A stretch of DNA of 64,000 nucleotides from Escherichia coli (GTDB lineage: Bacteria; Pseudomonadota; Gammaproteobacteria; Enterobacterales; Enterobacteriaceae). The stretch is taken from NCBI RefSeq assembly GCF_041886205.1, contig NZ_CP169029.1; one strand, written 5' to 3'. The position numbers and the translations under genes were made by a program. Shown piece after piece: positions 32,271 through 62,625 of this stretch. Position 1 is the first letter of the stretch. Each line of letters begins with the position of its first letter. Below the pieces are notes generated by a model. That model worked only from the letters and a program-made list of their open reading frames with translations. It searched no databases and was not told where the DNA came from.

Positions 32271-33821
32271 TTATACCGTAAACCCTAACATCATCCCCGT
32301 ATCTTCATGCTCCAGCAGATGGCAGTGCGCCATATAAGCATGTTCTTTCGGTGCATCGTGATTAAACTTCACCAGCACTTCGCTGACATTACCTTCTACC
32401 TTAACGGTATCTTTCCAGCCCGCGCGATGAGCCGCTGGCGGTTTGCCATTTTCTGACAAGATACGGAACTGCGTGCCGTGGATATGGAACGGATGCAGCA
32501 TCATGTCGCCCACGCCAGAGATAACCCAACGTTCGTATTGCCCTTTCGCCGCCGCAAACATCGGCTTGTTCATATCAAACGCCTGACCGTTGATTTTGTT
32601 GGCATGGTGGAAATCGAACTTCCCGCCGTGGTTCATATGATTCATATTGCCGTGCCCCATATGGCCCATCATCTGGCTGTGATCCATCCCGGCCATCGCC
32701 TGATCGCCATATTTCTCCATTAGCATCTGCATCCCCATCATATCGAGCATCGGGTCCATAGAGAGTTGCAGCTTGCGTACCGTCAGCCCTTCCAGCGAAG
32801 GTAACGCAGGCAGGCTACTTAATGTGTCTGGCAAAGCACCGGAGGCACTAATAGCAATCGGCTGAATCCGCATTACCGGATGAGGCTTATCAAACGGCGC
32901 AATCGCCATCCCCATCTGGCTGACCGGCAGCGTCACCAGGTCAAAGGGTTTGTTATCGTTAACCTCCACCAGCACTTCAAAACGCTCGCCCATCAGCACC
33001 GGCAGTTCGCTCACCTTCACTGGTTCAGGTAGCAGACCACCGTCGCTGGCAATCACATACAGCGGGCGATTGTCGCTGGTGGCGAAATTGAGCGAACGGG
33101 CATTACAGCCATTGAGCAAACGCAGGCGCAGCCAACCACGCGGGGCAGCGTGTTGCGGGTAGATTGCACCGTTGGTCAGCAACGTATCGCCAAACCAGCC
33201 CACGGCGGCGGTCATCACATCCAGTTGATAATCAATCTGCCCGTCGGCGCTAAATTTCTTATCCTGAACGATCACCGGAACATCATCGATACCCCACTGT
33301 TTTGGCAGCATTAATTTCAGGATCTCGTCATCTTCAATCACCACCAGCCCAGCCAGCCCCATCGCCACCTGTCGCCCGGTTTTGCCGTGCTGATGCGGAT
33401 GGAACCAGCAGGTAGCGGCAGGTTGATCAACGTTCAACGTCACCGAGCGCTTGCCACCTGGCGGAATAATTCCCTGCGGGCCGCCGTCGACTTCACCCGG
33501 TACTTCCAGCCCGTGCCAGTGCAACGTTGTCTCTTCCGTCAGTTGGTTGTAGATATCAACCGTTACCGCTTTGCCGCGCTGTAATTTCACCGCCGGCCCC
33601 AGCAGATTGCCGTTATAGCCCCAGGTAGTTGCAGTTTTCCCGCCAAAGGTGGACTGGCCTGCGCCAATAGTTAACTGAATGCGATTACGGGCATCGGTCG
33701 TGAGCAAATCAGGGATCGGTAACGTTGGGCGTTCTGCCGCAAATACTGCGCGGCTCCACAGCGGCAAAGCCGAAGCCACACCCAGCGCGACGGAATATTT
33801 TAAGAAATCACGACGTTGCAT
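32271..33821 (-). CDS. cueO: Periplasmic multicopper oxidase CueO
   Basis: ORF 32271..33860; start refined to [18 protein letters not shown] (twin-arginine signal); HCHLLEH copper site; Met-rich insert; 516 aa. Confidence 0.95.
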
Positions 33822-33860
33822 AGTTATTTCCTTATTCTTAAGCAGGCGAAACAAAATCAA

Positions 33861-33900
33861 ACGTTGAGCATAGTCCTTCCCCTTACGGGAAGGTCAAGCC
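33861..33900 (-). promoter_or_regulatory. cueO promoter with CueR operator (19-bp palindrome CCTTCCCCTTACGGGAAGG at 33875-33893) and adjacent TTGACC -35
   Basis: Perfect inverted repeat matching the recalled CueR box, between a -35-like TTGACC and a -10-like element upstream of cueO. Confidence 0.7.
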
Positions 33901-33986
33901 GCAGACACAATTTAATCGACAATAATGGTCGTCGCCTCGCTCGCAGTGTGCTAACGTTTATCTTCTTTAAGCCCCTGGTAGAAGCA

Positions 33987-34334
33987 ATGAAGACGTTTTT
34001 CAGAACAGTGTTATTCGGCAGCCTGATGGCCGTCTGCGCAAACAGTTACGCGCTCAGCGAGTCTGAAGCCGAAGATATGGCCGATTTAACGGCAGTTTTT
34101 GTCTTTCTGAAGAACGATTGTGGTTACCAGAACTTACCTAACGGGCAAATTCGTCGCGCACTGGTCTTTTTCGCTCAGCAAAACCAGTGGGACCTCAGTA
34201 ATTACGACACCTTCGACATGAAAGCCCTCGGTGAAGACAGCTACCGCGATCTCAGCGGCATTGGCATTCCCGTCGCTAAAAAATGCAAAGCCCTGGCCCG
34301 CGATTCCTTAAGCCTGCTTGCCTACGTCAAATAA
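33987..34334 (+). CDS. yacC: Small secreted protein of unknown function (YacC)
   Basis: ORF 33816..34334; start refined to ATG 33987 (MKTFFRTVLFGSLMAVCANSYA signal peptide); 115 aa. Confidence 0.85.
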   Translation: MKTFFRTVLFGSLMAVCANSYALSESEAEDMADLTAVFVFLKNDCGYQNLPNGQIRRALVFFAQQNQWDLSNYDTFDMKALGEDSYRDLSGIGIPVAKKCKALARDSLSLLAYVK

Positions 34335-47887: not shown

Positions 47888-48047
47888 GGGTTATTCCTTA
47901 TCTATCTAATAACGTTGAGTTTTCTGGAACCTGTCCCATTGAACTCTCGCCGGAAAGCTCAATAAGACAGGTTCTACGTTTAGTTGCCGCGCTTTTATAT
48001 GCGCTTGATTTACAACATCTTCTGGATAATTTTTACCAGAAAAATCA

Positions 48048-59261: not shown

Positions 59262-59470
<209 letters not shown>

Positions 59471-59476
<6 letters not shown>

Positions 59477-59860: not shown

Positions 59861-59879
59861 TGTCTTAAACCTATAAAAA

Positions 59880-59899
59880 AGGCGCAGAATCCTGCGCCT
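59880..59899 (-). terminator. Hairpin (aggcgcag/ctgcgcct) with T-run on minus strand between secA and mutT; putative partial terminator/attenuator
   Basis: 8-bp stem, 4-nt loop; AAAAAA on plus strand at 59875-59880. Confidence 0.55.
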
Positions 59900-59919
59900 T
59901 TTACTTCAACTGTTAGCTT

Positions 59920-62625
59920 TTATTGCAGGCGACCATGGCACTGCTTGTATTTTTTACCAGAACCGCACGGGCAAGGATCGTTACGTCCTACTTTGCGTTC
60001 ACCGGTTTGCGCCGCCAGTGCAGCTGCGGCTGCAGAGTCGTCATCCTGATGGCTAAGCTGCTGCATTTGCGCTAAACGCTCGGCTTCTATACGACGCTGT
60101 TGTTCCAGCTCCTCAACCTCTTCAGGCATACGTACCTGAACTTTGCTCAGCGTACTGATAACTTCATATTTCAACGACTCCAGCATCGCTGCAAACATGG
60201 AGAACGATTCACGTTTGTATTCCTGCTTCGGATCTTTCTGTGCGTAGCCACGCAGGTGGATACCCTGACGCAGATAGTCCATCGCTGCCAGGTGCTCTTT
60301 CCACAGGGAGTCAAGCGTTTGCAGCATGACGCCTTTCTCGAAGTGACGCATCATCTCAGCACCAACCACTTCTTCTTTACGCTGATACACTTCGATGGAC
60401 TGCGCCAGAATGCGCTCACGCAGCGTCTCTTCATGCAGTTCTGGTTCTTTATCCAGCCACTCAGCAATTGGTAAATCGAGGTCGAAATCGTTCTTCAGAC
60501 GTTCCTGCAGCCCCGGAATATCCCACATTTCTTCCAGCGACTGTGGCGGAATGTAGGCATCAATGGTCGCTTTGAACACATCTTCACGAATGCTGTTAAT
60601 GGTTTCGCTCACATCACTGACATCCAGCAGTTCGTTACGCTGGGAGTAAATGGCGCGACGCTGATCGTTAGCCACGTCATCATATTCCAGCAGTTGCTTA
60701 CGAATGTCGAAGTTACGGCTTTCAACTTTACGCTGGGCGTTGGCAATCGCTTTGGTCACCCACGGGTGTTCAATGGCTTCGCCTGGCTTCATACCCAGTT
60801 TACGCATCATGCCGGATACTCGGTCGGAAGCAAAAATACGCATCAGCGCATCTTCCATCGACAGGTAGAAACGGGAAGAACCAGCATCCCCCTGACGACC
60901 AGAACGACCGCGCAACTGGTTATCGATACGACGGGATTCGTGACGCTCGGTACCGATGATATGCAGGCCACCTGCTGCCAGTACCGCATCGTGACGTACC
61001 TGCCAGTCGGCTTTAATTTTTTCAATTTGCTCTGCGGTCGGATTTTCCAGCGCGGCAACTTCTGCCTGCCAGCTACCACCGAGCACAATATCTGTACCAC
61101 GACCCGCCATGTTGGTCGCGATAGTCACCGCAGCCGGATAACCTGCCTGAGCAACAATCGCCGCTTCGTTGGCGTGGAATTTGGCGTTCAGGACGTTGTG
61201 CTTAATACCGGCTTTGGTCAGTTCGTTTGATACCAGCTCCGATTTTTCGATGGAGATAGTACCCACCAGCACCGGTTGGCCTTTCGCAGTACGTTCTTTG
61301 ATATCTTCAATGATCGCCTGAATTTTTTCCGCTTCAGTCATGTAGACCAGGTCCGGCAGATCTTTACGAATCATTGGACGGTTGGTCGGAACAACGACGG
61401 TATCCAGCTTGTAGATGGAGCTGAATTCGAAAGCTTCGGTATCAGCAGTACCGGTCATCCCCGCCAGTTTTTCATACAGACGGAAGTAGTTCTGGAAGGT
61501 GATCGAAGCCAGCGTTTGGTTTTCGTTCTGGATCTGCACACCTTCTTTCGCTTCCACAGCCTGGTGAAGACCATCGGACCAGCGACGGCCCTGCATGGTA
61601 CGACCGGTGTGTTCGTCAACGATGATAACTTCACCATCTTTAACGATGTAGTCGACGTCACGGGTAAACAGCGCATGAGCGCGCAGCGCCGCCGTTACGT
61701 GGTGCATCAGCATGATGTTGGCCGGAGAGTACAGAGACTCCCCTTCATCCATGATGCCTTCTTTCACCAGCAGTTCTTCAATCAGCACCAGACCACGTTC
61801 GGTCAGGTTCACCTGGCGAGATTTTTCGTCCACCGAGAAGTGGCCTTCGCCCTGGAAGGTTTCGGAGTCTTCTTTTTCCTGACGGATCAGGTGCGGAATA
61901 ATTTTATTCACGCGTTTATACATTTCCGAGCTGTCTTCTGCCGGGCCAGAAATGATCAGCGGTGTACGCGCTTCATCGATCAGGATGGAGTCCACTTCGT
62001 CCACCAGCGCATAGTGCAGTTTACGCTGTACACGTTCTTCAGGACTGAACGCCATGTTGTCGCGCAGGTAGTCAAAGCCGTATTCGTTGTTCGTACCGTA
62101 AGTGATGTCAGCTGCGTAAGCTTCACGCTTCGCTGGTGCTGGCATACCCGGCAGGTTGATACCGACAGTCAGGCCAAGGAATTCAAACAGCGGACGGTTG
62201 TTTTCGGCGTCACGTTGCGCCAGGTAGTCGTTCACGGTAACTACGTGCACGCCTTTACCGGTTAGTGCGTTCAGGTAAGCAGGCAGCGTTGCGGTCAGGG
62301 TTTTACCTTCACCGGTACGCATTTCGGCGATGCAGCGTTCGTTAAGAACCATACCGCCGAGTAACTGAACGTCGAAGTGACGCATACCAAAGACGCGCTT
62401 ACTTGCCTCACGCACCACGGCGAAAGCTTCCGGGATCAGATTTTCCAGCACTTCGCCTTTTTCCAGACGTGCACGAAACTCTGCGGTTTTACCTTTCAGT
62501 TCTTCGTCGGAGAGTTTTTCCATCTCCGGTTCCATGGCATTGATGATGTTGACCACTTTGCGCATCCGGCGCAGGGTGCGATCGTTACGACTACCGAAAA
62601 CTTTAGTTAATAATTTGATTAGCAT
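59920..62625 (-). CDS. secA: Preprotein translocase ATPase SecA
   Basis: 901-aa [26 protein letters not shown]...; C-terminal zinc-binding [14 protein letters not shown]. Confidence 0.97.

Follow-up and report, generated by a model that had tools for sequence, protein, structure and literature searches.

We have analyzed the region between two divergent genes in a window of 64,000 nucleotides from Escherichia coli (contig NZ_CP169029.1). The segment 33000-35000 of this window matches E. coli chromosomes with identities of up to 100%, and the genes annotated there are cueO, yacC and speE. The coding sequence of cueO, annotated under this name in identical E. coli genomes, occupies 32271-33821 on the minus strand. 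Its open reading frame begins with MQRRDFLK, a twin-arginine signal, and the product is a multicopper oxidase. The divergent gene yacC is annotated at 33987-34334 on the plus strand, with its ATG at 33987. The 165 nt that separate both genes (33822-33986) are 100% identical to those of E. coli K-12 MG1655 and reach 99% identity or more in 5,366 of the 5,431 E. coli records that matched this region. A Shine-Dalgarno sequence, AAGGAA, can be read directly at 33828-33833 on the minus strand, 6 nt before the ATG of cueO, and the corresponding block, ATAAGGAA, is conserved in the ortholog alignment described below. Elsewhere in the window there are small RNA matches at the Rfam gathering level, namely tp2 (47890-48003, plus strand), STnc40 (59875-59944, minus strand) and two of naRNA4 (59278-59355 and 59395-59471, both minus strand).

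Since cueO lies on the minus strand, its promoter reads from right to left. From 33897 down to 33867 the minus strand contains a -35 hexamer TTGACC (33892-33897), a spacer of exactly 19 nt, TTCCCGTAAGGGGAAGGAC (33873-33891), and a -10 hexamer TATGCT (33867-33872). The transcription start would fall at 33860-33862, as predicted from the promoter geometry (5-7 nt downstream of the -10). An inverted-repeat search detected in the same place a dyad (33875-33893) whose arms, CCTTCCC and GGGAAGG, enclose a centre of 5 nt, GTAAG, and on the plus strand these positions read CCTTCCCCTTACGGGAAGG, precisely the 19-mer quoted in the original prediction. There it had been called a perfect 19-bp dyad. This holds for the 7-nt arms, which are perfect around the 5-nt centre, and not for the 19-mer as a whole, in which 16 of the 19 positions are self-complementary. 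It had also been placed between the -35 and the -10. Most of the dyad is indeed inside the spacer, but it reaches over the final 2 nt of the -35, while its other end stops 2 nt short of the -10, and all these elements belong to the minus strand. The spacing itself, which had been described as the one expected for activation by a MerR-family regulator, was borne out by the measured 19 nt. The start codon of cueO is found 72 nt downstream of the beginning of the dyad. A generic scan of 33600-34200 for promoters and terminators, restricted to promoter spacers of 16-18 nt, found nothing; with this restriction the empty result is the expected one and is no evidence against a promoter here.

The dyad is an exact match to CCTTCC-N7-GGAAGG, which PMC8169799 gives as the core binding sequence of CueR and credits to Yamamoto and Ishihama (2005). 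A longer form of the CueR site, ACCTTCCC-(5)-TGGAAGGT (PMC1526738), is matched at 8 of 8 positions in its left half and at 6 of 8 in its right half. We compared the number of such matches in the window with the values expected by chance. Allowing up to one mismatch, the core has a single match in the 64 kb (0.10 expected from shuffled sequences), which is the site at cueO. A 14-base form with up to two mismatches gave 2 matches against 0.11 expected, and the only exact one was again the cueO site. Besides, both strands of the window together contain a single TTGAC[AC]-N19-TAnnnT, that of the cueO promoter. Perfect inverted repeats with 7-nt arms and a 5-nt centre were more frequent than expected (16 versus about 4), so symmetry alone proves little, and the significance of 33875-33893 comes from its sequence and its position, not from its symmetry alone. 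The only other match to the extended CueR-box pattern in the 64 kb, CCTTCCCAACTTGCGAAGA at 1680-1698 on the plus strand, carries two mismatches and is compatible with chance. In place of a position weight matrix the published CueR consensus served as the pattern for the operator, the copA promoter (PcopA) being the only independent site that was verified.

The copA promoter sequence lies 29 nt before the start of copA in 5,422 of 5,426 E. coli genomes. When it is aligned to the cueO promoter (PcueO), 22 of 31 positions are identical. Both have the -35 TTGACC, the arm cores CCTTCC and GGAAGG and the 19-nt spacer, and also the register of the dyad is alike, beginning in both at the fifth base of the -35 with a 2-nt overlap (the overlap of the repeat with the -35 in PcopA has been described in PMC8169799). 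They differ in the dyad centre (CGTAAGG in PcueO, CCTTGCT in PcopA), in the direction in which the arms are extended (inward in PcueO, CCTTCCC/GGGAAGG, and outward in PcopA, ACCTTCC/GGAAGGT), in the -10 (TATGCT versus TAACCT) and in the gene downstream, which codes for an oxidase in one case and for an efflux ATPase in the other. The gene cueR itself is absent from the 64-kb window. An annotated cueR ("Cu(I)-responsive transcriptional regulator") is found in the K-12-like genome of E. coli strain 7A, in which the cueO-yacC intergenic region is 100% identical to that of the window. We also looked for cueR beside copA in E. coli O157:H7 and it was not there; other genes come after ybaT.

Control of cueO by CueR and copper is reportedly described in Outten et al. 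2000, as cited elsewhere. The control of both copA and cueO by CueR, which bends the 19-bp spacer, is presented in PMC8169799. A PcueO-lacZ fusion was induced by copper, PcopA and PcueO are treated as the CueR target promoters, and the FRET signal of CueR bound to DNA is lost when both are deleted (PMC9396075). PcueO is also included among the CueR operator sites in PMC4507017, where a strain with a deletion of the cueO promoter was used. By comparative genomics, a site for CueR and a promoter whose spacer is 19 nt long were assigned to the yacC-yacK divergon (PMC1526738). Four more publications (PMC12589874, PMC10995868, PMC13201067 and PMC2919089) gave no sequence detail for PcueO. For the dependence of PcueO on CueR and copper we rely on this literature, in part on secondary citations.

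A dyad in the middle of a 19-nt spacer is common to MerR-family promoters in general (PMC1526738, PMC7911910), and the site could in principle be the operator of another member, such as ZntR, SoxR or a GolS-like regulator, or of an unrelated dimeric factor, with CueR not being the main effector. MerR at Pmer (Tn21/Tn501) and ZntR at PzntA resemble PcueO in having an over-long spacer, a dyad, a dimeric regulator and distortion of the DNA (PMC7911910, PMC1526738). However, they have other repeat sequences and other inducing metals, and the spacer of PzntA is 20 bp long (PMC7911910) versus the 19 nt of PcueO. The arms at cueO contain the core that is specific to CueR, PcopA has an identical one, and PcueO is named as a CueR target in three of the publications mentioned above (PMC9396075, PMC4507017, PMC1526738). 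We consider it very improbable that a regulator different from CueR is the main effector here.

Conservation was examined at two levels. Within the species, 5,424 of 5,426 complete genomes of E. coli carry the 42-nt cueO promoter, and it is identical in 5,267 records. Beyond it, a search anchored on the protein, and unbiased toward the promoter, yielded 80 cueO loci. They belong to about 20 named genera of enterobacteria, among them Escherichia, Citrobacter, Salmonella, Enterobacter, Klebsiella, Raoultella, Kosakonia and Kluyvera. Loss of the dyad in orthologous promoters had been named beforehand as an outcome that would speak against the operator, and a search with the exact core, which recovered only 12 of the 80 loci, gave the appearance of such a loss. 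This was rejected, as a search tolerant to mismatches finds the site in 79 of 80 loci with its register unchanged. The number of mismatches was 0 in 12 loci, 1 in 48, 2 in 12 and 3 in 7, the commonest being a single A-to-G change in one arm. In 79 of the 80 loci the site stands at a matching distance from the cueO start codon, and every one of these 79 sites fits TTGAC-N20-TAnnnT, i.e. a 19-nt spacer. Among the 47 distinct ortholog sequences TTGAC is invariant in the -35, with C as the sixth base in 46. In the orthologous loci the -10, whose position does not change, is TATGCT (39) or TAAGCT (38). The promoters of cueO (cuiD) in Salmonella, Citrobacter, Enterobacter, Klebsiella and other Enterobacteriaceae are like that of E. 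coli, with TTGACC, a 19-nt spacer and TA(T/A)GCT. The divergent neighbour yacC is also found in 78 of the 80 loci, and most of the other genera have a 5' UTR that is shorter than the one of E. coli by about 10 nt. The one locus of the 80 without the site belongs to Intestinirhabdus alba (NZ_WMJZ01000002.1, 1-1500). Nothing resembling a CueR box was found there (4 mismatches in the best match), and the 1.5 kb upstream of cueO contained no homolog of yacC. This upstream region appears rearranged.

The mean identity of the orthologs to the window was 0.996 for the -35, 0.92 for the -10 and 0.84 for the whole promoter block, versus 0.31 for the 5' UTR and 0.28 for the 22 nt upstream of the -35. 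These values amount to a clear phylogenetic footprint over the cueO promoter block. The symmetry of the dyad followed a different pattern. The arm proximal to the -10 is GGAGGG in 32 of the 47 distinct sequences, and E. coli, with its symmetric arms, represents the minority state; the pair 3/17 of the dyad is symmetric in only 14 of 47, and the centre of the dyad contains nearly invariant G's that are not palindromic (loci L008-L082, with the site about 60-72 nt upstream of cueO). Judging from the alignment, what is conserved is the operator together with its geometry, not a perfect symmetry.

These data also bear on the idea that the function of the inverted repeat is to form an RNA hairpin (a terminator, an attenuator or a structure in a transcript that crosses the intergenic region) and not to bind a protein. 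A segment of 41 nt does fold into a GC-rich hairpin of 7 bp on either strand, with -13.1 and -15.2 kcal/mol. The z-scores of these folds, however, are only about -2, and neither a T-run nor any terminator-like site was found in 33600-34200. The repeat is located upstream of the -10 hexamer and is consequently outside the cueO mRNA. In the orthologs the pair 5/15 is non-complementary in 16 of the 47 distinct sequences, and the trait conserved in them is a constant register relative to the -35 and -10 hexamers. We have rejected the intrinsic terminator or structured RNA on the basis of the missing T-run, the weak z-scores and the broken pair, and a hairpin as the explanation of the repeat must be deemed highly unlikely.

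Our analysis indicates that the stretch 33867-33897 (minus strand) is almost certainly the sigma-70 promoter of cueO with a CueR operator built into it. The CueR-type operator originally proposed for this promoter is supported by the exact core, the 19-nt spacer, the register of PcopA, the presence of cueO downstream, the 79 of 80 orthologs and the literature. All the sequence-level traits of a CueR-dependent promoter of the MerR type are found here, and we came across no evidence contradicting this explanation.

The way in which such a promoter would work can be outlined from the architecture that it has in common with PcopA, on which, and not on PcueO, the CueR-DNA and CueR-RNA polymerase structures were solved (PMC8169799). 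With 19 nt, the gap from the -35 to the -10 is 2 nt above the optimum, and RNA polymerase would be unable to engage both hexamers properly. A CueR dimer would sit on CCTTCCC-N5-GGGAAGG in the spacer, on the helix face opposite to the polymerase, and without Cu(I) it would hold the promoter in an inactive shape. When it carries Cu(I), or else Ag(I) or Au(I), CueR would kink and undertwist the spacer. The hexamers would then be spaced and phased as in a 17-nt promoter, and cueO would be transcribed. In the published description, Cu(I)-CueR bends and undertwists the 19-bp spacer, and the -35 and -10 come to about 55 A, as in a 17-bp promoter (PMC8169799). For PcueO we infer the same distortion from the common architecture. 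The product, CueO, is a periplasmic multicopper oxidase, exported by the Tat system, that converts Cu(I) into the less toxic Cu(II).

The opposite side of the intergenic region deserves a separate comment. A mechanical open reading frame of yacC does exist from a TTG at 33816 to 34334, and its first part (33816-33986) had been dismissed in the original prediction as not coding, a view that our comparison upholds. That this part codes for an N-terminal extension of 57 codons, to which we give practically no credence, has in its favor the frame uninterrupted from 33816 to the yacC ATG, but the gene is annotated from 33987, and in 78 orthologs residue 1 falls on this ATG. The frame that stays open before the ATG varies from 1 to 135 codons in the 78 orthologous loci (5 codons in three other Escherichia lineages). 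A coding extension would also overlap the start codon and the promoter of cueO, and in the ortholog alignment there are indels with lengths not divisible by three, and conservation is low away from the promoter blocks.

Within the same intergenic region there is a second conserved block, at 33920-33958 on the plus strand, with a mean identity of 0.75 versus 0.28 in the adjacent 22 nt. Its sequence is AATAAT, TCGTCGC, a variable part and AGTGTGCTAACGTT, in this order and with gaps between the elements. It looks like a candidate promoter for yacC, with a weak putative -35 (TCGTCG, 33929-33934) separated by a spacer of 17 nt from an extended -10 (TGcTAACGT, 33949-33957), all on the plus strand. 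This candidate is placed back to back with PcueO and does not overlap the CueR site.

We have also found cueO copies from which the operator is missing. In the plasmid pTBE6_2_blaCTX-M-55 (NZ_CP154402.1, 2685-8049), cueO and a 3' fragment of gcd are located between two copies of the IS10-like element ISVsa5. The end of the insertion sequence (...GGGGATTCATCAG) abuts TGCTCAACG, with the junction at the equivalent of position 33870 of the window. In the plasmid cueO, ISVsa5 thereby takes the place of the -35, of the CueR dyad and of the first 2 nt of the -10. The same ISVsa5-cueO junction appears on 10 plasmids of PLSDB, which come from E. coli and Escherichia fergusonii and from pig and human sources. 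It is a possibility that operator replacement by IS10-like elements creates a mobile cueO that is independent of CueR.

The CueR operator in the cueO promoter is real, was correctly interpreted and is already known. The site in the promoter of cueO (yacK) has been described since 2000 and has been used in biosensor and single-molecule studies. What the present comparison adds is modest, specifically a footprint across genera in which the -35, the 19-nt spacer, the arm cores and the -10 are fixed in about 20 named genera while the perfect symmetry is not, and further the plasmid copies of cueO that lost the operator. As to the conserved asymmetry, it might be functional, tuning the affinity of CueR or the distortion of the spacer in such a way that the Cu(I) threshold of cueO differs from that of copA, a proposal that we regard as rather doubtful. 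If it were true, Escherichia, with its arms fully symmetric, would show a derived state of higher affinity. This case also confirms that a promoter of the MerR type can be recognised from the raw sequence.
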